A DNA stretch of 62,705 bases, the filler included. It is 10 parts of 10 records of this genome, joined end to end, with 100 filler letters (N's around TTAATTAATTAA, not from the genome) between each part and the next. Parts side by side here need not be neighbours in the genome. Positions count along the whole stretch, not along the records: positions 19,187 to 29,804 come from SRR15195285_2162; 9 more parts are not named here. The stretch is one strand, 5' to 3'. Positions 9,107-44,851 of the stretch are shown piece by piece (the first letter of the stretch is position 1; each line of letters begins with the position of its first letter). Position numbers and translations under genes: made by a program. Under the pieces are notes generated by a model. The model saw nothing but the letters and a program-made list of their open reading frames with translations. It did not search any database and was not told the DNA's origin.

Positions 9107-9206
9107 NNNNNNNNNNNNNNNNNNNNNNNNNNNNNNNNNNNNNNNNNNNNTTAATTAATTAANNNNNNNNNNNNNNNNNNNNNNNNNNNNNNNNNNNNNN
9201 NNNNNN
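9107..9206. other. Artificial contig spacer N44-TTAATTAATTAA-N44
   Basis: 100 nt with a six-frame stop 12-mer flanked by Ns; identical at 9 sites. Confidence 0.99.
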
Positions 9207-12373: not shown

Positions 12374-12473
12374 NNNNNNNNNNNNNNNNNNNNNNNNNNN
12401 NNNNNNNNNNNNNNNNNTTAATTAATTAANNNNNNNNNNNNNNNNNNNNNNNNNNNNNNNNNNNNNNNNNNNN
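12374..12473. other. Artificial contig spacer
   Basis: N44-TTAATTAATTAA-N44. Confidence 0.99.
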
Positions 12474-19086: not shown

Positions 19087-19186
19087 NNNNNNNNNNNNNN
19101 NNNNNNNNNNNNNNNNNNNNNNNNNNNNNNTTAATTAATTAANNNNNNNNNNNNNNNNNNNNNNNNNNNNNNNNNNNNNNNNNNNN
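19087..19186. other. Artificial contig spacer
   Basis: N44-TTAATTAATTAA-N44. Confidence 0.99.
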
Positions 19187-19187
19187 G

Positions 19188-22100
19188 CTGGACCAAGTGG
19201 ATTCCATGGTGGGCGGTGAGGTTGCTCCGGAGACAGGAGATGCACAACAGAGCCTCGGTGATAGCGGCACGATGGCGATCGGTGATGCCGAAGCAGAGGA
19301 GGCAGACATGGCCAAAAAACAGCTACAAGGTACGGCGGCTGTAGCGACAGCGAATTTGGCTCACATTCCTCCTGATTCCTCAGCACGGTTGATGACAGTG
19401 GTTATGGACTCCCTTACCGTGTTTTCAGTACCATTCTCTACGACCATTCCGTGGCCTGCAGCTAGTTGGGCGAAAGTTCCAGAATGGTTGCACTTCATGA
19501 AAGGGGTTGTCCTCGGTCTGCCAGGTCTCTTAGGCGATACCTTGGAATTTTTCTCAGCGATAGTTGCTGCCCTGTTCTTTTGGTTTCCAGACTGGGAATG
19601 GCCAGACTTACATATGCCTCCGTGGGCTGCTCCAGTGCTGGACGTGTTCCCAGATTGGACCTGGCACGTTCAGTTCGGGCGTGGATTCCGCACAATGTTT
19701 TGGGTATGTTCGTCGATGACCGTCATCTTTCCGATGCTTGCAGCGATCGCAAAGCGATACGGTACAAGTGCAGACGTCGCAACTCTGACTCTCATCGTCT
19801 TTGACGCCGCGGCTATGCTGTCTGTGAAGACACTTGCTGGGGGTCTCCTCTGCACAGAGCGAGACTATCCCGCAAACCAAACCGTCCTGGTCGGTCCAAA
19901 CCCTCCTATTGGCGATGGATTCGACGTGCCGATTTATTTTGACTTCCACAACGGACCAGTGTTTACGCTTGACGACAATGCGGGGCAGCTTGATCCATAC
20001 GGCCGGGCAACGATTCCCGCTAACTGGAGCGTGTTCCCTAATGTGACTGTCACCCTTGAGGTCAAATTGGAAGGTCTGTTCCTCGATGCAGTGCCAGACG
20101 ATCAGCCATTGAGGTGTTGGACTCCTGAGCATGGCCCTGTTCTCGTACTGGCACTGATTGCACTGCCACTGTATTATACGCAGTCGATTTACTACAACAG
20201 GGTGTACCAAGCAAAAACGACAGTGGTGGTATACGATCAGCTCTTCCAAATGATTATTGCTCAGCTCAAGTTCTTCTTAGCTGTCACGGCAGCGAGTCCG
20301 ATCGGCGACTGCGGAAACGCATACATCTTGCTGTGCATTTCCTGGCTTGTCACGCTGACAATGCTCCTGCTAACATTTTTCATGCACCCATGCAACGTGC
20401 GTATCCTGGATCACGTGCGTATTGTTGGGCTGCTGAACACACTATACGCTCTCACGATTTCCACGCACCTTGTTTGGCAAGTTGGGGACACCAGATGCGG
20501 CGAGGAGATCGAACCGGAGACGTCAGATTCATGGCATGCTCCAGCGTTGGCATACGGATCGCCTTTATGCATGCTACTCGGTGTACTGTACGTTCTGGTG
20601 CAGCGACAAATGGACAAATCAAAGGAAGCGGCCAACCTGCGAAGTCTGCAGTCAATCCAAGAGCAGTACGCGGATCTACCCGACATCTCATATGGCGCGA
20701 TAAATCAGTACGTGTCAGTTCTACAGCGACGAATTGACCTGCAGGCAGAGAGCCAGAGCAGTCCTACGTACACCAATCCACTTCATCCACGTATCACCAA
20801 TCCACCTACACAAGAGTCAACACTCGACGAGGAACCAGGGCCGCTTTGTATGGACATCGACCTGGCTAAACTGCCGGCAACGTACACGGGCCAGTTAGAG
20901 GGCCCAACGTGGGAATTATTGCTTGGCGCACCTGCAGATGTTGTGATTCGTGGGCTCGACACTGAGTCAGAAGGATGCCAAGCTTTGATCGGTACTGTTC
21001 AATCAGGGTTGATGGATATCATCAAGAAAAAGCTTCACCTGACGTCGGCGGACGATGATGCTCCAGCAGACAATTCAGAAGAGCAGGTAGAGACGATTAT
21101 GGCGCTGCATTTGCTGGTCACTGGATTTGGCAAAGGAACGCAAAAAGTGCTGCAGACCACCCGCCCATCACAACTCGACAGCAGTTCGAAGAAGATTGAA
21201 GTCTCACTCGCGTGCTCAGGACTACTTTCAGACACTGCCAATCTGAAGATGTTTACAGAATACATAAAAGACAACAACGCAGTGATTGAGGTTGATGTCA
21301 GCAACAATTTGATGACTGGTGGCCACATGCTGTACAACACCATGTCAGGTACATCTGACATTTGTGGAGCTGGTGCAGATACGAGCAGCGTGGACGCACT
21401 GTCACAGGTTTTGCAAGACTCACAAACTATCACAAGTTTGACGCTGATGAACTGTGGTCTTACATCTCGAGCAGTGGACATCATCGCAGAAGTCGTCTTG
21501 ACGATGGATCGACTGAGATACATCAACGTATTTCAGAATGATCAAATGGGCGATGCTGGGCTGTATAGTTTGATTGAGAACGTGCAAAAGTCTTCTTCAG
21601 TGCAGACAATTTCTGGGCTCACGGAGAACTCTGAGATGGCGGACTTCTCCAACTTGAAACTAAGCTCAATGGATACGAAAATTGTGGCGGCTGATATCAA
21701 ACTGGCACGTTTCAGCTCCACGTTGAAGTCAATTAAGATGAGGTCAACCGGCGACCGCAACTCGGCAACAGCCTACGTTTTGGACACTCAGAGCACCGAA
21801 GTGCAGCTACAAAAGTGAGCTTCTACTGAATCATCCTGCCTCAACCGCAGTTTCGAATGCCACACGCGCACGCGTAGTTATGCACAGGTTTTGGGCGTAC
21901 TGTACTGACCTTACGTTGTTGTTGCAGGCAAGGCCTGGGCCCGGCTGATTTAGCTCTTGTAGCGAACTGGATGAATCGGCCTGAAGTAGGCTACAACAGC
22001 ATCAACATCGCCCAAAATCCAGTTTTTGGGAATCTGGATGTGCCTCCACTGACAATACTGTTGATCGCTCCACCAGGCTGCCTCAAGTACCACTATGCAT

Positions 22101-25100
22101 CTGTGCTGGCTGAACGGTACAATCTAAAACACATTGATGCAAGTGAGCTCCTAGTGTCTTCCGGGCAAGAGTTCCTTCAAGAAAAGCAAGAGGAGCTCAG
22201 GCAGATGACTGTTAAAGAACTTCGGTTACGGGCCAAAGAAGAGAGCATAAATCTTTCACGCGTGAAGCATGCGCTTGCAGAGGACAACCCAGGAGGCGCA
22301 TTGACTGACCTTCTCATGCAGCACTATCGAGCCATGGAAGGGCAAGAAGGTCAATCGAGCGTGAAAACAGGCAAGATGGTAGCAGACCGCTACATCGCAA
22401 GACCCCTCAGCAGAGCAATTGAGGAAGCTGCAAGGACAGGGTGGGTCATGACTGGCTTCCCGCGCACGGAAGCACAGGCCCACATGCTTCAAGGCTTGCA
22501 CACTTCACCTTCGATGATTGTGGTGCTTGAGGCAGATGCAGAAGAGTGCAAACGTGGATGCGCAGCGCGAAGGGTGGACACCAGAGTAACCCCCTCCGAA
22601 GTTTACGACCTAGAACGCAGACCCCCAGCGCACGAGAAAGTAAAAAGTCGCCTAAAGAAACGTGAAAACGACAATCCCGATATAGTCAACGTCCGGCTTG
22701 GGCATTTTCGAGCCAATTGCCACAGCGTCCTCAACACGTTTGACCCAGAAAATGAGATTACCTTCCGGATACCGACGAGAGAGCACGCGTCCGAGACTCT
22801 CGGAGACATAGTCGAGCTGGTAGAGGCTGTAAACCAGGGCTTGAATACTGACTCCCACACAGAGTATCTGATTGACCTTTTCACCTCGGCTGATATCGAT
22901 GGCTCTGGTCAGCTGAATTATTCAGAGCTGTACGAAGCAATGCAAAACGTAGGGGTGGAAGTATCGAAAGGCACTATCAAGCGAATTATTGAAGCTGCAG
23001 ACGATGACGCAGACGGAAATTTGACGCAGGAAGAGTTTTTGGCGTGTTTTGAAGCTGATTCAGGTCCCGAAGACGTGATCGATCTAGTTGACAGTGCCAT
23101 GACTGGCGGACGTGACCATACGGGGTGGCGGAGTTTCTGCGACGTGATCAGCAACTCAGATGTATGCAAGCTCAACGCAGCACACATTGGAATGGACGAC
23201 AATGCCACCAAGAGGCTTGCAGACTCGCTGACCGACACGCTGGTTGAATTAGACATCACAGGCAACCCGTTCGGTGCAGCAGGTGTCGAAGACCTCGCTA
23301 CAGCATTCACGTCCAAACCAAACATTGTATCCCTGCTTGGATTAGAGGCAGATACACGGTCCCTTGATCTCACCAACGTGGTGATGACACCTTCATCGAC
23401 AGCCCTGCTGGCCACAGAGATTCAGGATGGCAGATCGCTCGGCGCGGTCACCTCAATCGCAGTCAATTCAACCGGAAAGTCAGAAGATCCGCAAAAACTT
23501 TTACTCAAGCATGACACAAGCATACTCGATGTGTCAGACCTGAACTTTGGCCCGTCGGATGCGCTCCTGGTCGCCGCGTTCCTGCAAGCAAACATCGCGT
23601 TCAACAGCAACCTCCGCACTTTGAAAGCTATCACAACTGGAGACTCATCAAACCCACAACCGTACACTCTACGCGTGGAAGACAAGCTCATTGACCTCAT
23701 GGACAAATCTGTTGGTACACAAGATGCAATGCTGCTGACGTCTTGGATCTCCATGCCTTTGGTACGTCAGAATGCTAATGCGATCAATCTTCTCGGCAAT
23801 CCAATCGAAGACAAGGGCCTTGAAGCAGTTTTTGCGATGGTGGATGGCAGTTCCATCGAAAACTTGAACCCCGAAGCGCCCATCGGAACCCGAATTGACA
23901 GCGTCTGCGGGATTATGCGTGGGCAAGACGACCTAGACTGGTCGAATAGAGACCTGAGTGTGGATGACTGTCGAACTATGAGCGCGGACATAAAGTACTC
24001 GATTGAGTACGGTCGTTTCGATGTCACGAACATCAATCTGACAGGCACACTGCTTCCAAATGAAGGAAAACGATTACTTGCAGAAATCTTGCCAGAAGCA
24101 GCGCTGCAGACGTTGACACTTCAGCTAGGAAACAGAGCTGTGCAGCTTGATATGGATTCAAAACATATCGGTGCAGAAGACACTGAACTTGGGCCAGTTG
24201 ACGCTTTTTTGATTTCCAAATGGATGCAGGCAGACGGCCCGCAGAACACTTTGACAAGCATTGATTTGAGTGGATGTTTGATCTCCGGATCACGGAATAT
24301 GGTTCAATCTACCATAAACCCTCGTTATGAGATTGATACAGACCTGAGCGGCTTGAAGGAGTTAATGCCTACCTTGGAAATGATGCCGAACATGCAGGTT
24401 CTAAACCTGGCAAACAACAAGTTTGGTGAACAAGCTGCTGAGTATCTCCTGAGCTCGCTCAACTGGGACAAGACAAAACTCACAGTGAGTCGTGCAGTGG
24501 TAACAACACGTGTAACTGCGTCGATCCGCTCCCATTGAATGCACTGTTGCTGGTATTTTCGCAACTGCTGACACGATGCTGTCCTGCTGCAGACCGTGAC
24601 ACTAGATTCAACTGGAGTTGCCACGTCGACAAATCCGTTCACGCTTGATATATCAGCCAATGAGCTGGATCTTGAGGGCCACGAGCTGAGCTCGTTGGAC
24701 GCACAGCTTGTTGCAAAGTGGCTGCCGAAATCATCTGTCACACGCATCAACCTGTGCCACAACCCAGCATTCAGCGACCCAACACAGTTTGTGGCGATGT
24801 TTCAAGACTCTGAGTCTAAGCTTCGCTCGCTGTGTGGTGTGAAAGAAGGAACTCTTGAGATAGACTGGGCAACTCATTCAATATCGCGTGCTGACTTGAT
24901 CATCTTGTCCGCCGAACTTAAATTGTCGCGAGCTGCATCTGGCATCCAATCTCTTGACCTTTCCCAGACTCACTTGGATGAAGACGGTGGGGCTGTGCTT
25001 GCGGAGGCGCTTGCATCAAAACAACTGAACAGCGATGAGTACATGTCAAGCAAACTCCAAACGCTTAGGATCGGTGGCAAAGCTGCTGTAGGCGTCACAG

Positions 25101-28100
25101 TCATTTTCGAGGGTCGTATAGCACACATATGCGCCGAGAAGCAAGACGAATCCAGGTCGGGCTCCTCCCGCACAATGAAGGTCATGTTTGCAGACGACGG
25201 TACGCGCTGTGCACAGCTCACCTCAATCACACTCGAAGTCGCATCTATTGATCTGCTTTGTCAATATGTCGGTGTGGCTGTTTGCAGATGCGGTCAGTGA
25301 TTGGATTCCAGTTGATAAGATACAGCAAGGCGCCGTGCCATGCGATTTGACTCTGACAGAAGATTCAATCGATGCAACTAGCACGGGACTCAGTGCGGGA
25401 GAAATGCACGTTCTTGCAGCGTGGATCAAGCGTTCAACGACCCAGATACAAACGTTGACGCTGGCTGGGAACCTACTCAGTGGGGCCCAGCGTGAAGAAA
25501 GTGAGTCTGGCGTCACGTGGTCAGCTGTAGACACAGCACTTAGTGGCATGAAGGCACTCTGCAGCGCATTGAATGATGCAAGCGACAGTGTTGGGATCAC
25601 ACACTTAGATTTAGCAAGCTGTGGTCTTGGCGCGCAGAGTACACTACTGCTTGCAAAGTCTCTGGCTACTGACGGACATTTCAAACGCTCAGCAGAGAGA
25701 ATCATATTGGATGGAAACTACGTCACCGATAGCCGCTTTCGTGTACACTCCCGTGACAATGACGGTGCAACCGAGTTGTCTTGGAAACTTGACCAGGACG
25801 TTAGCGCGCTACAGATGCTTGGAAAGTCGCTGCAGTATGCATCGAATTTGGTAGTGCTGAGTTTGGTGGACTGCCACATCGGCCCAGCAGCTCTAGTTGC
25901 CTTTGCTGATGCTGTCGCGTGGTCATCGATTGCGTTGAAGAGTTTGGAACTTGGGGGAAATCCACTCAGCTCTGAGCTCATTCACAGAAGCGATGGGCCA
26001 GTGGACGTCTCGGCAACAAGTCGATTATGTGCACAATTAGGTTGCAGCACTCAGCTGGAATTCATTGGACTAGATCGAATTGGTGGCGGCCCCGAACTAT
26101 TGCTAGATCTCACCGAGGCAATGCGAAAGTTACCAGCTCTGAAAAAGGTCAACCTGTCCGGAAACCTGATTGGCACGGCTTATACACGACCGATTGAAGA
26201 TGTCGACGTTCACGTACCTGTACAACATGGGTGTGTCGCAGCATACCAACACCGCTTCGGTGAAGTTATGCGCGATCCAGATGCAGACGGAGAAGTCCAA
26301 TTGCGTTGGCTTAACAATTCAGCGCTAAGCGATTGGATCAACCACAGCGACCTGTCTCCAGTTGTGGACTCGTTATCGCACATCGTCCGCGATTACTCAC
26401 ACATCAAAGCCTTTGCAGCTGCAATACACTCGCTGGAAGAGGTAGACATTTCCTACTGCGCCTTTGATCGGCACGCTGTGGACTGCTTGGTCAACACCGT
26501 CCGATGGACAGATGCAACGTTCAACCTCAAAGACATGGACTTTGATGGAAACAATTCAGGAGAAGATGCTCGAGGACAACTCGAAGCCACATGCAAAAAC
26601 CACTCAGTTCAGGTCGGCGTGGGACAGGGCGCGCTAGAGATGCAGGAACTTGCTGACAAGGAGTCTAGAGCTGCAGAAGCGTACAGAAATGCAGCCAAGG
26701 CTGAAGAAGACGCTCAGACATCTATCCAGACTGCCAACGAAGCAGCGGCTGCTGCGAAAGAACGCGGGAAAGATGCCGCATTGCGACAGGACTCAGATGA
26801 AGCTAAAGCTGCAGAAATTGAGCGAAAAGCAGCCGAAGCCGTGGCTGCTACGCAGCAGGCAGAGACGAGTAAATTAGCTGCAGCCAGAGAGGCTGCAGAG
26901 CTTCAAAATCGAATCGCGCAGCAGCAACTCGCAGACGCACAACTCAATGCTGCTCAGCAGAAAGTTAAGCCACGGCATTTCCACCGGGTGAGCAAGTCGG
27001 ACCAAGCGCAACTGGCTGTTGCAGAAGAAGCATTTGCCAAAGCGTCAACGATCCTGGACGACGAAGACCGCTTCACGTATGAGCAGAGAGCTGTGGACGA
27101 AGCCAAAGAAGCACTAAAACAAGCAAAGTCGTCACGTGGAAGAAGACAGGCGGAGCAGGCACTCGAGCAGTGCGAGTACAAATTAGAGATGGCGAAAAAG
27201 GATATACTTGCCAAAGAACTGTATCGTCTGGCGGACCAGCAAGAAGCCACTGCTGCACGTGCCGTACGCGCCCTGCGCTCACAAGAAGAGATAGATGCCA
27301 CGAAGGAATCAGTCGCACAAAGTCTTGCTGCAGACAGAGCTGAAGCCAACGCTGCCCAGCAGGATTTGACTGAGGCGCAAGAGCTGCTGCAAAAAGCGAA
27401 GATTGAACAAGAGGCTGCGTTGCAAGCTCGCATCGAAGCAAACCGTCAGGGTATGAAGGGCCTAGTGTTGGCACGGCAGGCCCGAAAGGCTCGTGAACAA
27501 GAGAGACTGAAACAGCTCGCTACAACGAATGTCGTCTACAATGATGAGGCAGAAGACGATCTCAGGGTGAATTGTGGCGTTGACTGCCTGACTGGGGCGG
27601 TCAGCACTGAGGCTAGGCGGAGGCTGACTTTGTTTTCTGTTCTCTTGATACTATGTGGCTCCGTCGGCCTCTTGTGCATGCTTCAGATATTTGATATCCG
27701 AGTACGCGGAGCACAGCAATCTGGGTTGTTTGCGTACATCACTCACTTCCTTGCAATCGGCGCAGTAATCACTCCCATAGCAGGGATATATGGTGCGATG
27801 CAGCACATCGAGCCACTGCTTCGAGGATGCTCCTTCGCCTTGTACGTGCTTACATGTAGCTACCTTGGAATCAGCGCTTCGTTAGTACACGAATCTCGGG
27901 TTCAAGATGGCGCCATGAATGTACTCATTCTAGCGTCTGTTGCAGCTATGCTGTCTGCCACTTGCGCATACTCTGCACTACGCATCTTCTGCGCATGGAC
28001 TTTTCGCCGAGATGACAACGCGATTAAAAAAGGATCACCTTCCACCTGGATGGACCACCCGAAAGCCAAAATTCGTCGTGTGAACCATGTACTGTTTGTC

Positions 28101-29804
28101 TCAGGTTGGTTCGGTTGGTTCAAGGCCACGCACCTGGGAGTTGTGTGTCTACTGCTGTACAATCTTGCGATCGAGTCGCCAACATCCAACCCGGCTGAGT
28201 TCGAATTGTTTCCACGAATGATGCTCGAGTTTTTCGTCTGCTTTTTCACGACATCGGGAAGCTTGATTGATGTACTCATGGTGCCTGGCAATAGACATCT
28301 GTGCTGGTGTTTTCAAGATGCTGTAACTGCATTGGACTCTTTGTGTGTTGTAACCTCGTGGTTCTCCTTTGCTTGGCCACAGTACGGCCGGTTCTTTTCA
28401 CTTGTCAGATGCCTGCGTGTGGTACGACCGATGGTTGCTCTTGCCGAGCTCGAGTTTCTACTAGACGAAGTCCATGCGGCAACGTTGATTGGAATGGCAT
28501 TCACGGCACATGCAAGCTTGTATCAGACTGTGGTGCTGTTTGTGGCGTTCAGCCTGCTGTGTTCCTGTATCATAGCTGTTAACCTGTTCGGAGGCGCAAT
28601 CCAATACTCATGTGAGGCTATCAGCACTGTCACCAATACCACTGGATACATGTGTCCGTCGTCACTTTCTGGCCCAAGGTGGTGGGGGATACCGCCCTGC
28701 AGCCAAGAGTCGGAATGCTATCGCTTGGACCCACCGCGTGAGCTGCTTGGCGGAGATGATACTGGTGAACGCGGCTTCAACTCTGTTCCCCAGGCATTCG
28801 TGACACTGCTAGCCCATATCAGTTGTGATGGTGGCATCAACGATCTCCCAACAGCTGTCCGAGAGGCTGGCGCCAGAGGAAGTGAATTCGCGTGGATGTT
28901 CTTTGCCGTGCTGATTGTAATTCTTCAGTGGGTAGTCTTCACCATGCTGCTTGGTATGGGGGTATACACAATCGGGGAAGCTGAGCAGACGGTGAAAGAT
29001 CATGCGCGCGACTCAAAACAAATCGAGCCGACCAATAGTCGAAAAGCCAAGGCGTCTCTCGGAAGCTTTGGGACGAAAGAATCTCTCGTAAACTTTGACA
29101 AACAGCGACGACAGCTGGCAACTAGTATCGAAGAGCTGAACTGGGATGGCAGTACCTGTTGCAATCTGCAAGTCGGACAAACGAGAAACAAGATTAAGAT
29201 GTTCGCGATCAGCAACACATTCCGCACTATTGTCCTAGTCATGGTACTTCTTTGGACTGGAGTGTTGCTGTCCAAAACAGGCCGAGAGTCGGCAACGAGT
29301 GCAGGTGATGTTGACAACTGGTCTTCAGTACGCCAGCTGCTCGAGCTGTTGCTGCTGGTAGGATTCATTTCAGAGATTGTTGTAAAAGTGATCGGTTTCG
29401 GCGTTCGTAGATTTTTCATATCGTTCGAGAACGTGCTGGACCTCGTGGTTTTCATTGTCACATGCGCAGGTTGGACAATTAGCTACTTTGGATATCTGCG
29501 CGAGATCTATTGTGAAGATGATGCTGCTACTATTGCTCTTGAGATGTACAGTTCGATGCCAGACGAGAATGACACCTTGCAAGAGCTAAATCTGGAGGCA
29601 ACAAAAGCACGCTGCGTGGAGAAAGCAATCAGCGAATCAACCCTAAAGTTTTTCCGCGTCATGCGCATTGTACAAGTTACACGGATTTTATACAAGCAGG
29701 AGGATGTGAACGACGTAATGATCAAAGCCTTTAGCAACTGGCAGCTCGTCTTCGGTGTGTTCGCTGCTGTGGCGTTTCTGGTGATATGTTTCTCTGTGAT
29801 TGGG
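19188..29804 (+). CDS. Giant multidomain membrane protein (partial, >3400 aa): multi-TM region, LRRs, adenylate kinase-like domain, 2 EF-hands, LRRs, coiled coil, 4-TM block, voltage-gated Ca/Na channel repeats I-II; exons 19188-21814, 21928-24484, 24593-25199, 25288-29804
   Basis: Introns 21815-21927 (GTGAGC..TACTGAC..GCAG, phase 2), 24485-24592 (GTGAGT..GCTGAC..GCAG, phase 0) and 25200-25287 (GTACGC..GCAG, phase 1) join four ORFs in frame; the first restores the repeat motif QGLGPADLALVANW. ADK motifs APPGCLK, GWVMTGFPRTEAQA, RENDNPDIVNVRL; EF loops DIDGSGQLNYSEL, DDDADGNLTQEEF; S4 LVRCLRVVRPM and FFRVMRIVQVTRIL; pore GFNSVPQAFVTLLAHISCDGG. Confidence 0.85.
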
Positions 29805-29904
29805 NNNNNNNNNNNNNNNNNNNNNNNNNNNNNNNNNNNNNNNNNNNNTTAATTAATTAANNNNNNNNNNNNNNNNNNNNNNNNNNNNNNNNNNNNNNNN
29901 NNNN
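29805..29904. other. Artificial contig spacer
   Basis: N44-TTAATTAATTAA-N44. Confidence 0.99.
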
Positions 29905-34757: not shown

Positions 34758-35508
34758 ACACTTTGTTCTTTTCATTTTGATTTTAAATTGAGATCTTCAT
34801 TTGATGTCAGGAGCCATAGTACCGTACTGTACAATAAAGCGCCGGAGTATATTAGAAACCGGTGTGAGGAAGTAACACACCGATATACATGTAACTGGGG
34901 ATCCGAACTGGGTTGGTCAGTATTGTACAGTATAATGTATACAGTATGCAGCGATATCGGGAATTACTGGTGCGATCACTGAGTGTCCCGGCGGTACATC
35001 GAGTGAATTCGGGAATCCAACGCGAGATTCACTGAGAAATCTCGTGGACCCTTCTCCCCACCTCGAGTCGCTGCTTTGTTTCGCACATCATTCCTGAAAA
35101 TCGCCTTTGTTCTTCCTTGATAACCGACCCCCGAGTGAAGAAGACCTTAGAAAGCACAACAAACGGCGCCTTCATGCAGAAATGGCACACCATTTTCCAG
35201 CACAAACTGCAGAAAAATTGAAATTGAAATCACCCCGGCGCTTACTGTTGCACGAGCGGCGCTGGCCATGGCGGTGTCGGCTATGGTCAGGCTGGGCAGC
35301 AGCAGCAGCGGTGGTGGCAGCGGTGGTGGTGGCGGCAGTGGTGGCGATGCCCTGCGATGCTCTGCGATGACCTGCTGCCCAGACTGAGTGCGGCTGTTGT
35401 GGGCTCGGGCTCTTTCGCAGCCCAGCCGTCGCGCTCGCCGGTCAGCAGGGCGAGGAACGATGATGAGGGCCGGTCCTACGGGGTGAGCTGGCTGTTCATC
35501 GCAGGGCG

Positions 35509-38500
35509 ATGAACAACGTCAGGACGGTCCTGGCGAAGCACAAGGCCTATAAGCGGGCGCGGCGGCTGTGGGAGGAGTATCTCGAGGTCTCGGAGCTGCG
35601 CGACAAGGTCGAAGCCGACCAGCGCCTCTCGACCTTCCTGGACAACTTCAAGCAGTCCTATGCTGAGCTGTCTGCTGGGCCAGAGGACCGCGAGACACTG
35701 GACAGCATCTTCGGGGAGTGCACCGATATCCTGCAGTCGCTGCTCGCGATGCTCGACAAAAAGATATCGACGGATGGCGAGACCAACCTGGCGGACCTTC
35801 TGAACAACGCCTTGGAGGTGGCCGAGCTGTTGATTCGGGACGAGAAATACCGGCAGGTGGTCAAGGACACGCCAAAACTGCTGTCCCAGATCGTCGATGT
35901 GCTCTCGATCGCTGGAAACTCCGAAGCCAAGAAGATCGTCTTGCGCATGATCAGCTCGTTCGGCTCCGTGTCAGAGAACAAAATGATGGTGGGGCATCAA
36001 GGGGGCTTCCAGAAAATGCTGACTCTGTTGGTCGAGGGCGATGAGGACCTCAGCCGCGAGGTCCTGAAGACGTTGAAGCACTTCCTGAACGTCGAGATTC
36101 GGCAAGCCAGCGAAGGTTCAGACGATGCTGCGATTGGGGTGGTGGGGGGGTTCGCGCTGTTTTCGTCACAGAAGATCGTGCATGCCATGTCCGGTTTCAC
36201 GCAAATCGCATTCGGCGAGGTGAATCGAATGTTTCCCGCTGCAAAGATTGAAGAAAGGATGCAGCTGGTTGCTGCGAATATGGTGGATTCCGCCGCCGAG
36301 GAAGCAGACTTGCTGCGTGAGAGCATGGCGTTTCTCTTGGAAGGAGGGGAGGCGGGGCTGTTCCCACCATCACAGGCTTCCTTGCAGCACGTGTATGATC
36401 AGTACGAAAGTTCGAAGACCGCCGCACAAGTCGCGCTTGCCTCTGCGGGAGACGGCAGTGACGAGGCAACACCGTTACTATCGGGTACAGAGGATGAGGT
36501 CATGAAGGAGCTTATGCGGATGCAAGGTGTTTTGAGCACATTGACATTATCCATTTCTGAAGCTGCGCGGACGGTGCAACTGGACATGATGGAGACCATT
36601 TCTCGTTTGCTGCTCAACAATCCACGAAATCAGCACGAGTTTCGAAGAGCTGACGGATACTCACGCTTTCTACAGCTGTTGGATCGAGTGACGGACTACA
36701 GCGCCCAGGAGAACATGTTGTTTGTCCAGGACGTATTCGACACCATTTTCACCATTGCATTGGATGGCAACCCAGAGCGCGTTGTCGGCAATCCAGATGC
36801 CATGCGGCTGCTTGTTGACCTAGTGTGCACGGGGTCGAGCGCCGTACGAATCCACGCAGTGAGAACCTTGCATGACTTGCTCACCGTGAATTACGTGAAT
36901 GCAGCAGTGCTGCAGACAATCGACGGAGACTTGATGCTCACCGACTTACTTCTTAGTCAGGATGCATTCCCGGATGGGTCCAGTTCCGACGACGACCGCG
37001 CCGAGCTGGTGGACCCCCTGGCGAAGCTATTAGAGTACATGATCTTTTTGCTATCCTCGCATAGTATGGGTCCTTTAGGGCATGTGGTACGCTCATTGGA
37101 TCAAGCGCAAGCCTCACCTACGTCGTTGGACGCGGTCGTGGAAGAAGCGATGCTCAAGCTGGTGTCGAACATTACGTGTGATCTGCGCGCACGCAGAGCA
37201 CCATTCAATGTCTCTGAATTGTTGCCCACGGTAATCGAAATGTTGCGGCGCAGTTTCTCTGCCCCTCAACGTGTCGCGGGTGCAGAAATGCGAACCGGCT
37301 TAACTCGTGATAGGCGCCTGCTGCTGCTGCTGGAGTTAATGGGGGTGCTGGTGCATGACAGTCCACCGTTGGTGATGATTGTCGTGGAGCGTCAGGGTCT
37401 GACGCTGTTGACGAGTATCATCTGTGACAAAACTGGAGAGGTTCCGGGGTCATGTCAGTCGCGGCGGATGGGCACAGATACTGCTGTAGCCGTCCGCCAC
37501 ATGGCTTTATGGATTCTTCAGGACATAATCGGAGCCGGCTGCCAGTCAGGGATGGACCACACAGAATGGCTGGTATCGTTGTTGAACGCTCAGTTGCCTC
37601 TCGAACTGCAGCTCTTAGTGTTTGCAGCAGTACGGCAGGTTGGTATTAGCAGCGCTGTCAAACGCTATTTCCGGACAGCGGGTGCGCTCGACTCTTTGAT
37701 AGAAATTCTGCGAAGCGAGAATGTATCCCTTATCGAGCCTGTCCTCAAGACTCTGGCAGTGCTGACACGTGACTCGGAGGAAAACAAGTCGTACGTCGCC
37801 GAGGAACTGTTGGATGGTGATTATTCTGTCCTGCTAGACGCGTTCGGCTCTGCGCCAATGACGTTGAAGAACTTTCGCATCGCAGTGGAATTGGCGTGTG
37901 TCGGCCCTGCATATTCCATTTTCAGCTATGTCGAACCGGAACCAGAAGAGCCCCCGGCTCAACAGCACGTTCCACCAGCAGTGGGAAATCCAGACGGTGG
38001 CGACGAGAGGCTTGGCGGGAACGAGAGTTCAGATGACGAAGTAGATGGCCTGGGGCCATCCACAGGAGATACAGAAGCTGTACCTCCGCCTGATTTTGCA
38101 AATGATGATCGTGACGCTTCAACTGGCATGGAGCGTAATGCCGAGGATTCAGTGCCAGTTACTGCTCCGCAGGGACAACATCCAGATGTGTGTCCATCGG
38201 GAGCTGGCGGTTGCCCGTGGCACTGTGCAATTCGCGACCATGTCCAGCGTATTCAGGACCCGCAATTTTTGTTCTTGCAGGGCCCCCCTTCCCTGTCGCG
38301 TCACTATGCCTTTCTCATCGCTTTGCAGAAACGGCGCGAACAGACGTCAGAGGACGAAGATACTGGGTCGCTTTCACCCCGCAGCCAGATGACTTCCGAG
38401 CTTCGCGAATCCGACGTGCTGTCGCAGTTCTCTGATTCAGCATCGGAATCGTCATCTATTCGCGATTCTTTAGATCTGGCAGCGCGAGACTTAGCTCTGC

Positions 38501-41500
38501 AAGCACTGCTGAGCGAACAAGCGGGCAGCAAAGCCCGCACAAAAGTGGATGGAAGCAGACCATCACGATGGTGGGAGCTGGGACGGCGCAAGGCGGTGGA
38601 ACCTGAGCCCGAGCCCGAGCCCGAGCCTGAAGAGAGTGTCGCTGTGCCTAAGGGCGTAAAGGTCCGCGCTGACAGCCACACAGACGGCTTCCACCCTGAT
38701 CAAGTGGCTGGTGGGAGACTGGGCCGACAGATCATTACCAGTATGCTTAAGTTCGACCCACAGGTGACCGCAGGCATTGAGGGCGTGCCGTTTTGGCGAC
38801 CCGGATCGGGTTGGGCTGTGGACAGCACAAGGCCAGCGTCAGCACTGGACGATAGAGGTACCATACTCGCCCCAAAAGTGATGATTCGTGGCTCCACAGC
38901 ACTGAGCTGGTTGCTTGAACTGGTACTCCTGAGTGATGATGCTGTGCAGCAAGGTGGCATGGTAGCTAGTCTGCTCCGGATTGCGGCCTCTGGCCTAGCC
39001 GCTCGTCGGTCGATCTGTCATGCTGGTGGGTTGCAACGGTGTCTCCAGCTTTGCTTAGACCCGCGACTGTCAGATTCAGAATCAGTTCAGAGGCTGGTGC
39101 ACGTTCTTGCGAGTGCTGTTGGTCGTTATGACATTTCTCTGATTGAGCTGCGCGAGTTGTTTTTGATGACTTACGGAGCTCAATCTTCGCGCCAGCAAGT
39201 GCAACTGCTCCAAGTCATAGCCGCTGTTGCGCAACGCTGGGAACCAGTAGGACTGATACAACTCAGAGGGCCAGTCTCAGCAGTTACGGCACCTGCACTT
39301 GATAAATTTCCCAAGCCGCAGACCGGCTACACCATTTGTGCCTGGATCAAGTTAGGACCAACTCTGGAGCCAGGCGAGAACTTGGTTTTCTGTTGGAGAG
39401 ACCCCAAATATCTGATCTTCGAGCTTTTTTTCCGAGTCTGGCCGCGCGAGAGATTAGAAGACGGCACTTTAGAGCCAATCCCAAGGCGTAATTTGTGTGT
39501 GCGGATGCGCAACTCACCCTGCACCCACACTGAATACTTCACATACGATGGATTCTCATTTGACCACGTTGATTCTTGGCATCATTTGGTCTTGACTCAC
39601 AACAAGCAGCTCTTATCCTTGTATGTTGATGGACGCTATGTCCAATCATTTCAGCCACTCAATTACCCGATTGGCGTCTCGAGGACCTACCCGCTACGCG
39701 CTGTTATCGGATGCCCACAAGAGGCAGAGACGAATACGCACACTGCATTTTTGGAGCGTTGCACAGGAACGTTCTGTGGCGAATTAGGGTTGCTGCATGT
39801 GACAGAGGGAGTCTGGGATGCTAGCGCCGCACGGGCTGCCGCGAAGAGCTTTCCTTACCAACGAAATTTGCAGGCAGTAGGAGTGAATCACAAGCAGCTG
39901 CTGTGTATGGATCCTCTTGATTGCCCATCATTGCCATTCGCCAATGATCAGCGCAGTGTCGGCCAGGACATCGGCGAGAATTCTTTGCCTGGAGGTGCGG
40001 ACGCAATGCAGAGCGAAGACGGGTCTCTGGGCGAAGATCAGTCTACCTTGGATCAGTTCTACCGATTAGATGAGCTTGAGACCTGGCGAGAGCTGCAACG
40101 TGAACAGACACGGGACAAGCAGCACGAGATCGAACGGTGGAGGGACGATCGCCCTGTTGTCTTGTCGAATGACCCAGCGCACGATCCATTTGCATCGCTC
40201 GTTGGCGAGGGCACACATGCAGGTCCTGCGAACGCACCCTCCGTGGTTTCTGAACCTAGTCCTGATGTGGAGTTGCACAATGCGGCAACTAGCGGTCACG
40301 TGGAACGGGCGCCGGACGTGGTACTAAAATCGCCAGTGTGTGCAGATAAGCGATCAGACCTGACAGCGGGACCTAGTACACTAAATACTGCAATCACGCC
40401 AACCATGAGTAGCCAGGACCCCACCAGGTCGGATGCAGAAGCACTGCCAGCAGAAGATTTGTCGACAATTGTCCTCGAGGAGATACAGAAGGCGGTTGCA
40501 CCACTTGTTGTTCAGGGTGATGTCGACATCCATCATATGGGGTCTTTTCATGACGTGGCCCATGAAATTGGAGACTTCTACCTGCCATTGCCATTTCTGA
40601 GGATGGCGCCGCCACAGCGAGCGTTGGGGTTGCGAGTATTATTGGAAATGCTGTGTGCTAACGAGCAGACAGTCCGATCTTTTCGTGACGCTCGCGCTGG
40701 CAGCACCGTCCTCTATTTGCTCCAGGGCTGGTGCGGACCCGATGGGGAGCCAGACCCGGCTTTTGATTCTTTATTTGAGCTGCTGCGCGAGCAAACTTTG
40801 CCCGTGGGCGAGTGCATGCAGTTGATTTTCGATCTAATGCTGATCGATAACCTGCCAATGCAAAATAACGTGGAGCACTTGCAGACTTTGTCTGAAGTAT
40901 TTCTTGAACAAACAGCTGGGGAAGACGGAGAAGGAGATCCTGACGAGGCGCATATGGTGCAGCAGTGGAAGGATTCATGTGCAGGAATGCCAGCCATGAT
41001 GGAGGTCTTGTCGCGCAGCTCTGGGGAGCAAACCCGCGTAGTGCTGAACATCTTGAGGCTGATGTGGGAGCCTTCGTTTACTAGCGAAGATCTTGAGATG
41101 ATGTTGGAGTTCTGTGTGGGGACTGTTGAGGAGATGCTTTCTATTCTGGAGGATTGTGACAGCGAGGATGATGATGACGAACAGATCCCAATGGGCGAAG
41201 ACCACCATACTCACGATGTTGCAACGACTGATGAGCAGGGTACGGGCATCGATCACCGTGCGATTGAGCTTCGGAATACCTCTGGTGGCGATCGTGGGGA
41301 TGTTGGAGCACCTGTGGTTTGGGCTGCAGAGGAAGGAGAACCCGATACGGCTGCTAGTCGCCTGCAATATCGCAGTGACTACGAAGGTACGGTACCATTG
41401 CAAGTGGTGAAAGATGCGGAGTCAGTACCAGACAAGAGCATGTATGTTTATGGCTACGACTCAGATGATGATGTCGAACTAGGCAGTAGGGGGGAAATTG

Positions 41501-44011
41501 ATGCACGCGTGGCCCATGGTCTGGGCATTGCAGACTGCGATTTTCACGATTGGCTTGGTGACGGAGACATGCACGATGATCAGTTCAAGCCTGCACAGGA
41601 GCCGACAGACACAGACTATGCCGCCCAGATTTCGGAAGCCAAGTTCGAGGCTCTAGTTTTTGTACGCGAGATCCTCGTTGCGAAACCAGCAGATGTGGCG
41701 GTGGACGTCATGCGTGACGCGGGCGGGTTTCAAGTTCTATTTGCACTGCTCAGTTCCCCAGACGAACGAATCCGGTTGCTTGCATTGGATCTAATTGGTC
41801 TATTGATTGTTCATGGCAAGCCAGCAGATGCGAAGGCGTTTGCCTTGGCGGGTGGATTTGATACCGTCGCGAAGTACCTGGTCCGTCACTGGATTTCTCG
41901 GCCAGTAGGGTGGGCATTGCTGTGCTTAGCGGTGCGAACACCCGGTACGATTGTTGATACGTCAGAATGGCTTGAAGGCCGGTGCAATTTGAGTGAAGGA
42001 GGGGAACTGGCCTCCCCGACATCAGGCAGGTCGGCTTCGGACAGGTCTGATGAGGACGCAGCGCCGATGGTCATCAACTTCGAGGCGTTGTACTGCCTAC
42101 TACAATTGTTGCAGTTCGGAACAACCGACAAACCAGTAGAGCGGGACATGTCGGAACGTCTAGCTGAAATCACGATGGCTCCGCATAACTTGGATCAATT
42201 GTTGTCCCACAATTTCGGTGACTGGTGCTTTTCTTTTTTTGCGAAGATCCAACGGCATGCTGTCACGCGCCGTGGAATTCGGAACAAGTCTCACGTATTC
42301 CAAGTAGTGCGCAGGGTCAACGGTGCACTACTGCTCTTGAACATTCCGCGAGCACTGCCGCCGAAGACATTTAAGCAACTGCGAAAGTTCATTTCCGATT
42401 CAGCAGACTTCGGAATCTACTTGGTAGATGACGTCCTGGATCACTATGAATTGAGCCCAGTGCTCTCTGCAGATGATGCCAGCAACACAGTGAAAAACTT
42501 GGCTGGCTTCTTCGACCAGCTTGAAGAGCACACCGATATACCAGTGGAAACATGCGTGTGCATCATTGCACTCATTAACAACATGGCAGTGAGAAACAAT
42601 TCTACATCCCGGAACCACATGATGACGCACAAGCTACTTGACACAAGAGGTGAGCTTTCATGCGAATGCCACCCGCGTTCTGACGCCGCATTTGCAATTG
42701 CCTACATTCTCGACGCCTCGAGAGTACCATTTCATGATGTAATCTGGTTGCTGCAACCCTGTGTTTGTGCAGACCGCCTTGTGCTTCATTGCTTGAAATG
42801 CGATTCATCAGTGGAAGCCTGCTACGAACTTGTTGCGATGCCATTCGAATCTGTCATTGAGCAGCCATCTTTTCGGGAAAAGCACGGACCACTCTATTTG
42901 CTGCGCCATATGCATCGTGCATCCTGCGACCCGTCTCTGCAGGTGCTCTTCGCGAGTGTGATCAAGCATGTCTGCTGTACCGTCGACGAGAACCGCAAGG
43001 TTATTGCAAGGGTCATCGATGACGTCGATATCAGCACACGCATGCTAGGAAATGACTTCGGCGAGAATGTTAGTCAGTGGCTTCGCATTTTACCGCCACG
43101 AGCAGGCGCACCGCCTGGAACTCCGGACGGACACGGCGACAGTGTGACATCTCCAAGTCATATGGCCAGCCATCCTGTGATGGGTGACGAAGTCCGTTCG
43201 CCAATGCGGCTGGGAGCTGCCGCGGCCGCCTCGACTAGTGAGGTGCTTACAGTCGTGACCCCGCCTGCGTCGGGAGCCTCAGCTGTAACCACTACTGGTG
43301 GAGCGGCCCGTTTTCACCCTGTCTCTCCTGCGCGGAATCGTCCGGTGTCGCCGACGAGCAGCATCGGCAGCGCAACGAGCATCGACGGCGGCGAGCTGAT
43401 GGTTGACACAGTAGCTGACTGCGAAGAATTCCTGGAGTGGTATCACTGCCCTGAACAAGATGAAAAGCGCGAAGCGATTGAGGGACGCCTGGAAAAACTT
43501 TTAGCACCAGCAGACAAATCGTGGCGCCGACTGCACGAGCGTCAGCTCGCTGCACGTTCGAAAGCCTTTCGATCGCGGGTTGAGCTGGCAAGGACTAAGG
43601 AGAGCGCTCTCCTGGATGGCTTCAACGAAGAAGATAAAAAGGTCCGGGCACGTGTTGAAAAGATGGGCACGAACCACCTACGGCGCGTGCAACACTGCAT
43701 CGCGGAGCGCAGGGCTCGGGCCCGGGAGGTGAGTACGGCTGTCTGCGCCCGAATCTTGGTTGCGCTTCCATGTGTTCAATGCCACCACAGGCTATTCCAT
43801 CCGGAGCGCACCGGGTCTGCGTTTCCCTGTGCGTATATGTGGCTCTAACCTAATCGAACCGTTGTCATGCCAGGGACGCGCGGCATGGGAATCTCTCGTG
43901 GCCGGAACAGATGTGACTGACCCAGGGGCAAAAGAGGCCGATGCAGCGAGCAAGTTTTATGGTTTCGTCCCGCCGGCAATATTTTCGTCACGGAAGCGCG
44001 CCGGCCCGTGA
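35509..44011 (+). CDS. ~2740-aa ARM/HEAT solenoid with ConA/LamG-like domain, resembling the N-terminal part of neurobeachin/LYST-type BEACH proteins; exons 35509-42649, 42773-43728, 43874-44011
   Basis: ARM-like helices (NPRNQHEFRRADGY, FRTAGALDSL, MRDAGGFQVLFALL); ConA-like GYTICAWIKL..SWHHLVLTH..LSLYVDG..YP (~39320-39830). Introns 42650-42772 and 43729-43873 (GTGAGT..CTCTAAC..CCAG). 5' end may extend upstream. Confidence 0.7.
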
Positions 44012-44095: not shown

Positions 44096-44851
44096 TCACA
44101 GACCTTGCGCGCTCAAGAACTTCCGCACTTCTGGGTAGATGACGTCCGACTCGGTGCCAGCAAAGTTGCCCAGGACACCGCTGTCTTGGTCGTAATACTC
44201 GATGAGTGGCACGGTCATCTCTGCGTACTTGTCCAGCCGAGCCATGACAGTCTCTGGCTTGTCGTCCTCCCGCTGCTCCAGCGCCTCGCCCGTCACGTCA
44301 TCCTTGCCTTCCTCCTTCGGTGGGTTGTAGTCGTACGCGTACACGCGACCACTAGCCATATGGATCCACCGCCCCGACATGCGCTCCACGATGGTCGCTT
44401 GGGGGATGTCGAGGTTGATCACCATATCAACCTTGATCTCTTTAGACAGTGCCTCCGCCTGAGCCTGCGTCCGTGGAAAGCCGTCCAGCAGGACGTTGGT
44501 CGTCGTCGGCAGCTTTTCCACCTCCTCGAGCACCAGTCGGATGATCAGCTCGTCCGGCACCAGCGCGCCCGAGTCCATGTACTCTTTGGCCTCCAGCCCC
44601 ACGGCTGTGCTGTTCTGGACATGTGCGCGTAGCTCGTCGCCCGTCGAGAGGTGGTGGAAGGGGAACTCCTTCAGGATCTTCTTGGAGATCGTACCCTTGC
44701 CCCCGCCCGGCGGACCCATGATCAGCGCGAACTTCCGCTCGGCCGCCGCCGCCGCAGCAGCGGACGCCAGCATGCGCGGCTGCGCGGCGAAGCGCATCCG
44801 GTGCGCCGCAGCCGCCGCAGGTCGGCGCTGCAAGAGAGACCTCATGAGCAT
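44096..44851 (-). CDS. AK3: Mitochondrial adenylate kinase, GTP:AMP phosphotransferase AK3-like
   Basis: Arg/Ala-rich presequence; GPPGGGKGT, LSTGDELR, GALVPD, LLDGFPRT; LID RWIHMASGRVY..NPPKEEGKDDVTGEALEQREDDKPETV. Confidence 0.9.
   Translation of the reverse strand: MLMRSLLQRRPAAAAAHRMRFAAQPRMLASAAAAAAAERKFALIMGPPGGGKGTISKKILKEFPFHHLSTGDELRAHVQNSTAVGLEAKEYMDSGALVPDELIIRLVLEEVEKLPTTTNVLLDGFPRTQAQAEALSKEIKVDMVINLDIPQATIVERMSGRWIHMASGRVYAYDYNPPKEEGKDDVTGEALEQREDDKPETVMARLDKYAEMTVPLIEYYDQDSGVLGNFAGTESDVIYPEVRKFLSAQGL

Follow-up and report, generated by a model that had tools for sequence, protein, structure and literature searches.

The stretch of DNA analysed here (the window, 62,705 nucleotides (nt) in length) is made of 10 contigs artificially joined, with nine spacers of N around TTAATTAATTAA between them (none expected), located at 9107-9206, 12374-12473, 19087-19186, 29805-29904 and five other places. 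The subject of this report is the gene interval 19187-29804, which is one entire contig with a TTAATTAATTAA spacer on both sides, so that the contigs flanking it in the window are not its genomic neighbours. This contig, assembled from uncultured material, holds the greater part of a single protein-coding gene from a marine eukaryote, and the gene continues past both of its ends; the remainder was found on none of the other nine contigs when the whole window was searched by tblastn with the composite protein and the homologue P0009, both described below. Part of the contig is contained in 19 of the 23 public runs listed (12 studies), the labels being mostly marine or seawater metagenome. The gene is predicted to encode one polytopic membrane protein, composed of a Cav-like channel of four repeats, two extra membrane domains and an arm of about 2,200 amino acids (aa). 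A short N-terminal tail is followed by an eight-transmembrane (8-TM) domain, a linker, ribonuclease inhibitor (RNI)-like leucine-rich repeats (LRRs), an adenylate kinase (ADK)-like domain and a pair of EF-hand loops. After these come irregular LRRs over about 1,050 aa, a stretch of about 300 aa that is helical, a 4-TM block resembling tetraspanins, and the channel, of which the contig contains repeat I and the first part of repeat II. A full length of about 4,250 aa is expected by analogy with P0009.

Four open reading frames (ORFs) of the + strand, on which all the features of the gene given below also lie, fill the contig (19143-21818, 21878-24538, 24572-25300 and 25179-29852), and three GT..AG introns of 113, 108 and 88 nt, the only donor/acceptor pairs that restore the frame, join them into a spliced sequence of 10,308 nt, i.e., 3,436 codons, stop-free and open at both ends. 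A first-pass annotation of this DNA, made from the letters, had proposed exactly such a frame of more than 3400 aa assembled from four ORFs by three canonical introns, and its domain coordinates agree with the present ones within about 50-125 nt, the hydropathy TM segments lying at the places that it gave. Exon 1 (19188-21814, from the ORF and its translation) is open at the 5' side and encodes everything from the N-terminal tail to the first LRRs, including the 8-TM domain and the linker, in an uninterrupted 876-codon frame. Intron 1 (21815-21927, 113 nt, GTGAGC..TTGCAG) fits the frames on its two sides, and the ORF of the relative P0158 ends there too. Exon 2 (21928-24484) encodes the end of the first LRR block, the pseudo-ADK, the EF-hand pair and the start of the second LRR array, and is followed by intron 2 (24485-24592, 108 nt, GTGAGT..CTGCAG), for which there is an RNA joint, by exon 3 (24593-25199), which encodes LRRs, and by intron 3 (25200-25287, 88 nt, GTACGC..TTGCAG), which also fits the frames and is covered by a DNA contig of another run. 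Exon 4 (25288-29804, open at the 3' side) is one 1,505-codon frame, which runs from the LRRs through the helical stalk and the 4-TM block into the channel, where it takes in repeat I and breaks off within repeat II; since these parts share an uninterrupted frame, the key part of the claim is independent of splicing.

The closest guide to the whole gene is P0009, a metagenomic homologue of 3,638 aa that was found by an exhaustive HMMER search with exon 2 (E 0). When the spliced product was extended with the relative P0006 into a composite protein of 3,947 aa, it aligned to P0009 in a single high-scoring segment pair (628-3946 against 12-3329, 49.6% identity), and all three splice junctions were gap-free in that alignment. 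The same continuity is found piecewise elsewhere: in P0158 (74% identity), a single ORF encodes the TM domain together with linker and LRRs and ends at the position of the final residue of exon 1; in P0007 (62% identity), a single ORF begins just after the position of intron 3 and runs from the LRRs over the helix, the 4-TM block and repeat I into repeat II; and P0006, 100% identical, has the continuity of exon 4 and carries the frame on through S6 of repeat III. P0006, P0007, P0158 and P0008 (the contig's own protein) begin at the first ATG or extend into intron sequence, and they look like plain ORF calls. P0009, if likewise a plain ORF call, would be a single ORF of 3,638 codons. In the reachable databases the family is small and consists of this organism, of P0007, P0010 and P0158 (60-80% identity; one organism or several), of P0009 (about 50%) and of a sister clade considered below. 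Scans of contigs with an LRR-channel query (A1) gave pattern matches with no tblastn relative in metagenomes and no match in genome contigs, and the ESM Atlas returned no usable match for P0006. The precomputed Pfam list of P0009 also names PF27087.1, which is not among the matches in our own Pfam scans, made with a Pfam copy that lacks this family.

Public runs aligned to the contig (DNA, X1; RNA, X8, X15 and X16) bear on the junctions directly. In the metatranscriptome X15, a contig joins 24484 to 24593 and skips 108 nt that correspond exactly to intron 2, while three contigs of the DNA run X1 (records 4, 5 and 7) cover 24247-24874, 24886-25570 and 27503-28402 with 0 gaps, so the junctions of introns 2 and 3 and the boundary of helix, 4-TM block and repeat I are not assembly joins. 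Intron 3 was also considered as a sequencing frameshift, and this was rejected, record 5 of X1 being gap-free and P0009 having no extra residues there. Across the three junctions, where the first-pass annotation had proposed to map long reads and RNA-seq, contigs thus give support for introns 2 and 3 in DNA and, as a spliced RNA joint, for intron 2 alone. A chimeric assembly, or adjacent separate genes misread as one, would agree with the assembly from uncultured material and with a spliced RNA contig for one of the three introns; it is, however, largely refuted and barely credible as an account of the locus, as the gaps between the ORFs measure 88-113 nt, have canonical splice signals and fall inside LRR repeats, the junctions are spanned by contigs from a second, independent DNA run, the order is the same in two other lineages, and the LRRs, helix, 4-TM block and channel share a 1,505-codon ORF for which splicing is not needed. 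The earlier view that one gene fuses LRRs, a degenerate ADK and EF-hands to a Cav/Nav-type pore has thus held, with P0009 colinear, the ORFs of P0158 and P0007 in agreement and intron 2 seen in RNA, and the chimeric assembly that it named as a refutation is largely excluded.

The channel begins with repeat I (28074-28976, aa 2860-3160), where S1-S6 align to Cav1.2 and Pfam Ion_trans matches at 2e-20, with an S4 segment R-x-x-R-x-x-R at 28404-28430 and, in the pore loop, the D of ISCDGG (28818-28835) at the filter position. The start of repeat II (29187-29804, aa 3231-3436) comprises S1-S5, with S4 at 29652-29684, and is cut by the contig end. In the relatives, Ion_trans is matched at 2.1e-47 (P0006) and 2e-84 (P0009). 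The number of repeats, which the first-pass annotation had left at two or four, is at least three in P0006 and four in P0009: repeat I and S1-S5 of repeat II lie on the contig, P0006 extends through S6 of repeat III, and in P0009 Ion_trans is matched by four stretches. Among solved structures, Cav1.2 and Cav1.1 come nearest; P0006 as a whole matches at 3e-13, its repeats I-III being colinear with Cav1.2, and repeat IV of P0009 matches Cav1.1 at 5e-29. From HMMER alignments to Cav1.2 and Cav1.1 and from the alignment of the clade, the filter residues read D in repeat I, D in repeat II, S here or G in P0009 in repeat III, and E in repeat IV (from P0009 only). A Lys of the repeat III pore helix was considered as the filter residue and rejected, the HMMER anchors AL, ST and LLY placing it five positions upstream. 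The S4 charges are R, R and R in repeat I, K, R, R, (Q) and R in repeat II, and K, R and K in repeat IV (P0009), while repeat III is charge-poor; that is, Arg or Lys stands at every third position in three of the four repeats, the fourth repeat being taken from the homologue. NCBIfam gave no match on the channel part, and P0009 ends about 40 aa past IVS6 with no IQ-type motif by eye. The predicted channel is a divergent four-repeat member of the Cav/Nav/NALCN superfamily, in which the absence of an acidic filter residue from repeat III and the charge-poor S4-III make selectivity and voltage dependence unreadable from the sequence.

The same two features of repeat III would suit another reading, according to which the four-repeat module does not conduct and is a voltage or conformational sensor controlling the cytosolic arm, as Cav1.1 acts as a sensor in skeletal-muscle excitation-contraction coupling, and the very low likeness to solved channels (best E 3e-13 for the whole P0006) points in the same direction. 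This reading is nevertheless very improbable: pore loops and S6 segments are conserved in the clade, the repeats being 51-60% identical to those of P0009, the pore motifs recur even in the sister clade, an acidic residue occupies three of the four filter positions, and repeat IV of P0009 matches Cav1.1 at 5e-29.

Directly before repeat I lies the 4-TM block (27594-28016, aa 2700-2840), with four TM helices by hydropathy and the motif GIYGA at 27783-27800. It matches residues 119-241 of P0023, a region in which Pfam finds Tetraspanin, at a BLASTP E of 5e-5, and GIYGA is common to both, while the Pfam Tetraspanin profile applied directly to the block gave E 0.55, which is not significant. The large second extracellular loop with CCG that marks tetraspanins is absent, since the loop between TM3 and TM4 has a few residues and no Cys motif; the tetraspanin likeness of the block is indirect, by way of P0023. 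A fifth voltage sensor was also considered for this block and rejected, as spaced charges are absent.

Most of the arm consists of LRRs. The first LRR block (21096-22042, aa 637-914) is RNI-like by LRR pattern matches, is split by intron 1 and is 58% identical to P0009, and the profile of the N-terminal query A2 matches the LRRs of NLRP14 and the ribonuclease inhibitor at E 0.015-0.019. The second array (23168-26516, aa 1290-2340) is long and irregular, spans introns 2 and 3, matches LRR_6 and LRR_1, and is 52% identical to P0009; Pfam LRR_6 scores 1.1e-7 (31.8 bits) and 4.7e-5 (23.6 bits) against the gathering threshold (GA) of 23.4. About 20 LRR-like strands can be recognised by the pattern LxxLxLxxN/CxL in units of about 28 aa, in tandem as in RNI-like LRRs, with irregular spacing and many degenerate units. 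The LRR arrays of the first-pass annotation are accordingly present, and they are irregular and divergent, with a weak likeness to the ribonuclease inhibitor in the PDB (E 0.002-0.009); the 401-aa stretch encoded at 25290-26492 has no PDB match. Weak internal LRR matches were seen in the arm by tblastn (2.6e-7 to 3e-5), and self-BLAST of the arm at E 1e-3 returned no internal repeat pairs. A lineage-specific composite repeat was also noticed in the arm, where it occurs five times between aa 853 and 1962 (about 21744-25380) and consists of an STG motif, then a few acidic or polar residues, and finally an LRR strand with LGPxDAxLxAxW.

The LRRs are followed by the helical stalk (26649-27566, aa 2385-2690), which is coiled-coil-like by composition and heptad score: A, E, K, Q and R make up 63%, there is one Pro in 311 aa, and the heptad score, which is not a coiled-coil predictor, is 0.32-0.67 against a protein mean of 0.27. 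The stalk is 46-49% identical to P0009 and P0007 and has no Pfam match at E up to 10. The coiled coil proposed earlier for this place is therefore retained as a helix-prone stretch with a raised heptad score.

Between the two LRR arrays lie the two domains that would give the arm its sensory capacity. The ADK-like domain (22043-22855, aa 915-1185) matches Pfam ADK at 4.8e-11 (43.4 bits against a GA of 26.8) and, among PDB entries, AK8 at 2.8e-17 and maize ADK (1zak) at 1.6e-15; the NCBIfam adk model, for which the cut-off is 168 bits, reaches 81 and is aligned only from its position 43 onwards. The likeness to AK8 and to the plant long-type ADK extends over the nucleoside monophosphate (NMP)-binding and LID regions with their Arg residues, where GFPRT..Q, RRxD (as RRVD), R.ND and RL are kept in the alignment to 1zak, the last two as R..ND..(V)RL, the roles of these residues being, as we presume, those given in the general ADK literature. 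From AK8 and the plant enzymes the domain differs as follows. The Walker A motif is degenerate, APPGCLKY (22067-22096) being aligned to GPvGsGKs of AK8, so that AxxGxLKY stands in place of the catalytic GxxGxGK[ST]: the Lys is retained, and two Gly and the Ser/Thr are gone. A helical insert of about 70 aa follows the P-loop, and the NMP-site Arg of ..LLR.. is replaced by Val.

This crippled domain is conserved nonetheless. Its identity is 74% to P0010 and 60% to P0009, with 63-67% and 51-60% for the channel repeats, and the 8-TM domain (80% to P0158) is the most conserved of all the domains against the closer relative(s); identities at or above those of the channel repeats indicate that these accessory domains are under constraint. 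The P-loop APPGCLKY recurs in P0009, and P0023 and P0020 have APPGAQKY. Among the 153 proteins compared, APPG..KY is found in four (P0008, P0009, P0020 and P0023), all of them channel-linked, while the canonical P-loop pattern is found in 19. This confinement to channel-linked proteins argues that the crippled ADK is a module of this channel clade, retained on either side of the pore. The EF-hand pair (22862-23044, aa about 1188-1250) follows immediately, with a Pfam EF-hand_7 match of 2.3e-9 (37.9 bits, GA 30) and PDB matches to RSP7 (4e-12), centrin and calmodulin. Both 12-residue loops are canonical by eye, with D, N or S at positions 1, 3 and 5 and E at position 12 (DxDxS..E at 22892-22927 and DxDxD..E at 23000-23035), and are predicted Ca2+ sites.

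The Pfam scan, which covered seven of the 150 matches listed for the exon 2 search, found Ion_trans in three of the seven, namely P0009, P0023 and P0020. P0023 (3,394 aa) contains Tetraspanin (31.3 bits, GA 32.1), four Ion_trans domains, ADK and C2, and P0020, a 1,557-aa fragment, contains three Ion_trans domains and then ADK. Their channels are 34-35% identical to that of the contig over 999 and 745 aa (E 3e-148 and 4e-125), far closer than any solved channel, and the pseudo-ADK matches residues 2211-2514 of P0023 at E 5e-29 in an alignment that takes in both the degenerate P-loop and the insert. Judged by this domain content, P0023 and P0020 are a second uncharacterised channel architecture, a putative sister clade. 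The first-pass annotation had noted neither this clade with its C-terminal pseudo-ADK, nor the likeness of the 4-TM block to tetraspanins, nor the isolation of the interval as a contig of its own. With the gene described here they have in common the pseudo-ADK with the APPG..KY P-loop and the insert, the pore motifs of repeats I-III and, in P0023, a tetraspanin-type 4-TM block directly before repeat I. They differ in that the pseudo-ADK is C-terminal to repeat IV and is then followed by C2 in P0023, that Pfam gave no match to an LRR, an EF-hand or an 8-TM domain, that the tetraspanin block of P0023 retains the large Cys-rich loop, and that the filter residue of repeat IV is Q and not E.

According to another reading, the arm would be mainly a structural tether, which links the channel to the flagellar axoneme or the cortical cytoskeleton and sets the site of Ca2+ entry with little effect on gating. 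The best solved relatives of the globular parts are indeed axonemal, being AK8 from a doublet-microtubule structure and RSP7 (2.8e-17 and 4e-12, respectively), two of the four non-channel matches scanned with Pfam are large multi-ADK proteins (P0011 and P0013), one of which has CFAP61 domains, and long helices and LRRs are typical scaffold elements. The match to AK8, however, is a general family likeness, the plant ADK being close behind at 1.6e-15; the crippled P-loop is specific to the four channel-linked proteins of the 153; and the pseudo-ADK of the sister clade is C-terminal to the pore in proteins without LRRs, which argues for a channel-intrinsic role. A tether is on this balance an unlikely, though not negligible, description of the arm.

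The N-terminal end of the protein starts with an acidic tail (aa 1-67 of the spliced model, the frame being open 5') and continues with the 8-TM domain (19389-20603, aa 68-472), in which about eight hydrophobic helices are seen by hydropathy and three N-x-S/T sequons lie in a loop of about 95 aa, and with the linker (aa 473-636, 64% identical to P0158). This membrane domain has no match in Pfam (E up to 10), NCBIfam or the PDB, the PDB profile search with the query A2 giving weak LRR matches and none for the TM part, and scans of metagenome contigs with A2 gave pattern matches with no relative by tblastn. The ESM Atlas, queried with the 8-TM domain and the linker, returned eukaryotic clusters (best 0.94), the commonest being Oomycota, and the TRP family PF06011 at 0.89; these are leads only.

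The 8-TM domain might also be a separate product or isoform, with the channel protein starting at an internal Met at about aa 617-640 as in P0009. P0009 does have a Met at the equivalent of about aa 617 and no TM domain before its LRRs, and the frame of the contig is open 5', so that no start codon context is given there. Against this stands the uninterrupted 876-codon frame through the TM domain, the linker and the LRRs, which is found likewise in P0158 of another species with a 64% identical linker; RNA contigs cover the TM region too (20285-20599 in X8 and 20288-20526 in X16), and the start of P0009 may be the first ATG after an upstream intron, as in P0006, P0007 and P0008. A separate 8-TM product is accordingly regarded as quite unlikely.

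In the single polypeptide, the topology can be read from the channel backwards. S1 starts in the cytosol in the Cav/Nav/NALCN superfamily, and with four TM helices between the arm and S1 the whole arm of about 2,200 aa should be cytosolic, with which the eight N-terminal helices are consistent; the sequon loop would then be extracellular. The view of the first-pass annotation that the LRRs sense a ligand is weakened by this arrangement, as they have cytosolic modules on both sides and the four TM helices between them and S1, and are thus of the cytosolic RNI type, so that they would be surfaces for docking and not receptors for ligands outside the cell.

The explanation favoured here, with a confidence somewhat better than even, is that of one gene and one polypeptide with a channel tuned in cis by the arm. 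Its mechanistic part is put forward tentatively, at well below an even chance, and is drawn from the domain content. The pore would be a voltage-influenced, Ca2+-permeable cation channel, the gating of which the arm may tune in cis; Ca2+ feedback could come from the EF-hand pair, which would stand in for the C-terminal IQ/calmodulin module that P0009 lacks; the pseudo-ADK may be a non-catalytic sensor that binds adenine nucleotides or a partner; the LRR solenoids and the helical stalk would relay the state of the arm to the pore and dock other proteins; and the 8-TM domain might be a second membrane anchor and the candidate primary sensor.

Several observations weigh against this explanation. 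The RNA joint of intron 2 consists of one contig with a depth of 2.2 and a shorter side of 35 nt, and across X8, X15 and X16 it is the sole joint for the three introns. RNA contigs enter intron 2 in two of the three runs (X8 record 28, 24347-24575; X16 record 18, 24573-24723), and this read-through is unspliced RNA or DNA carry-over. P0006 is maybe of the same source as the contig and then not independent, and P0009 could be either a single ORF or a spliced model. The attachment of the 8-TM domain is seen in two of the three lineages, P0009 starting after it. The EF-hand_7 score of P0009 (25.4 bits) is below the Pfam cut-off of 30, and repeat III has neither an acidic filter residue nor a well-charged S4. 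Finally, the AlphaFold2 models of the 8-TM domain (2-row alignment) and of the 4-TM block with repeat I (4-row alignment) had predicted local distance difference test (pLDDT) values of 38 and 37.6, respectively, and were unusable.

A bolder extension of cis tuning would make the protein a new class of receptor-channel, in which a highly conserved 8-TM sensor and a Ca2+-permeable four-repeat pore of the same membrane are tied together by an NLR-style LRR arm with a pseudo-kinase and a Ca2+ sensor, and a stimulus at the 8-TM domain or at partners bound to the LRRs would lead to Ca2+ entry gated by energy charge; the pairing of the pseudo-ADK with a four-repeat channel would then be old, clade-defining and rearranged at least once. 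This extension is a long shot. If true, it would offer a single-polypeptide analogue, in a heterotrophic marine protist, of the signalling from sensor to Ca2+ channel in immunity or prey detection.

Elsewhere in the window and among the matches, a few features were noted beside the gene. On another contig, the ADK-like region 44189-44599 (- strand) resembles the pseudo-ADK weakly in tblastn (25% identity over 140 aa, E 1e-5), and this may be the organism's own ordinary gene of the adenylate kinase family. On other contigs, a single 2,793-codon frame at 35467-43848 (+ strand) encodes Armadillo repeats with a weak match to a neurobeachin-type alpha-solenoid (DUF4704), and an ORF at 49702-51927 (+ strand) encodes a calpain-family cysteine protease domain (Pfam Peptidase_C2, 1e-55). 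Among the matches, P0011 (2,651 aa) contains four ADK domains and a pyridine-nucleotide oxidoreductase domain in addition to the N-terminal and dimerisation domains of CFAP61, and is a ciliary-type multi-ADK fusion unrelated to the channel.

As to the literature, a survey of 277 four-domain channels (PMC5824947) gives many protist filters, including oomycete and cryptophyte clusters with D/D/K/D(G); the accessible part of that survey makes no mention of an LRR, EF-hand or N-terminal domain and contains no DDGE, DDSE or DDGQ filter. In the main texts of Creative Commons-licensed papers of PubMed Central (PMC) and of bioRxiv, no paper was found in which a four-repeat channel is joined with LRRs, an ADK, a tetraspanin-like block or anything comparable, which agrees with the first-pass annotation, where the combination had been taken as undescribed. 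Within that literature, the family of the pore is known, and the architecture and the channel-specific pseudo-ADK are undescribed.

Four-repeat Cav/Nav-type channels underlie fast electrical and Ca2+ signalling, and to our knowledge they are regulated through separate subunits and short tails. The protein predicted here would hold the regulatory machinery within one polypeptide, including a Ca2+ sensor, a conserved pseudo-kinase, an LRR solenoid of about 1,300 aa, a tetraspanin-like block and an 8-TM domain, and it may thus serve as a natural experiment on the ways of gating four-repeat pores. It is also a candidate for a new coupling of Ca2+ entry to the nucleotide and Ca2+ state in abundant uncultured marine protists. 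A crippled ADK on two differently arranged channel clades offers the testable idea of a nucleotide-binding pseudoenzyme as a channel module, and the D/D/S(G)/E filter is an unusual addition to the protist catalogue.

Among known systems, a pore is fused to an enzyme-derived sensor or to cytosolic LRRs in TRPM2 (NUDT9-H), in the kinase channels TRPM6/7 and in the LRRC8 anion channels. The likeness to them is one of concept; their pores belong to unrelated superfamilies or subfamilies and are tetrameric or hexameric, with no four-repeat channel among them. In oomycetes, PPTG_13136 and PPTG_13761 join a voltage-sensor-type Ion_trans to a guanylate cyclase (PMC12223298), and are comparable as protist proteins in which Ion_trans is combined with a nucleotide-handling domain. 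As far as the accessible text of that source describes them, they differ in having a single partial Ion_trans and an active-type cyclase, with no four-repeat pore, LRR or ADK.

With Cav1.1 and Cav1.2 the predicted channel has in common four homologous 6-TM repeats in one chain (four being seen in P0009), spaced Arg/Lys residues in the S4 segments other than that of repeat III, and acidic filter residues in all repeats but the third. It differs from them in a D/D/S(G)/E filter in place of the E/E/E/E of high-voltage-activated Cav channels, in a charge-poor S4-III, in the absence of a C-terminal EF-like, pre-IQ and IQ region (in P0009, by eye), and in some 2,850 aa, including 12 extra TM helices, before repeat I.

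UNC79 and UNC80 are large helical-repeat proteins. In the NALCN channelosome, as described in the accessible part of PMC12412391, NALCN is found with UNC79, UNC80 and FAM155 as subunits. Compared by description only, the two systems are alike in coupling a four-repeat channel to very large cytosolic scaffolds, whereas the scaffolds of NALCN are separate polypeptides of another repeat type and the scaffold predicted here is an LRR solenoid fused to the pore in cis.

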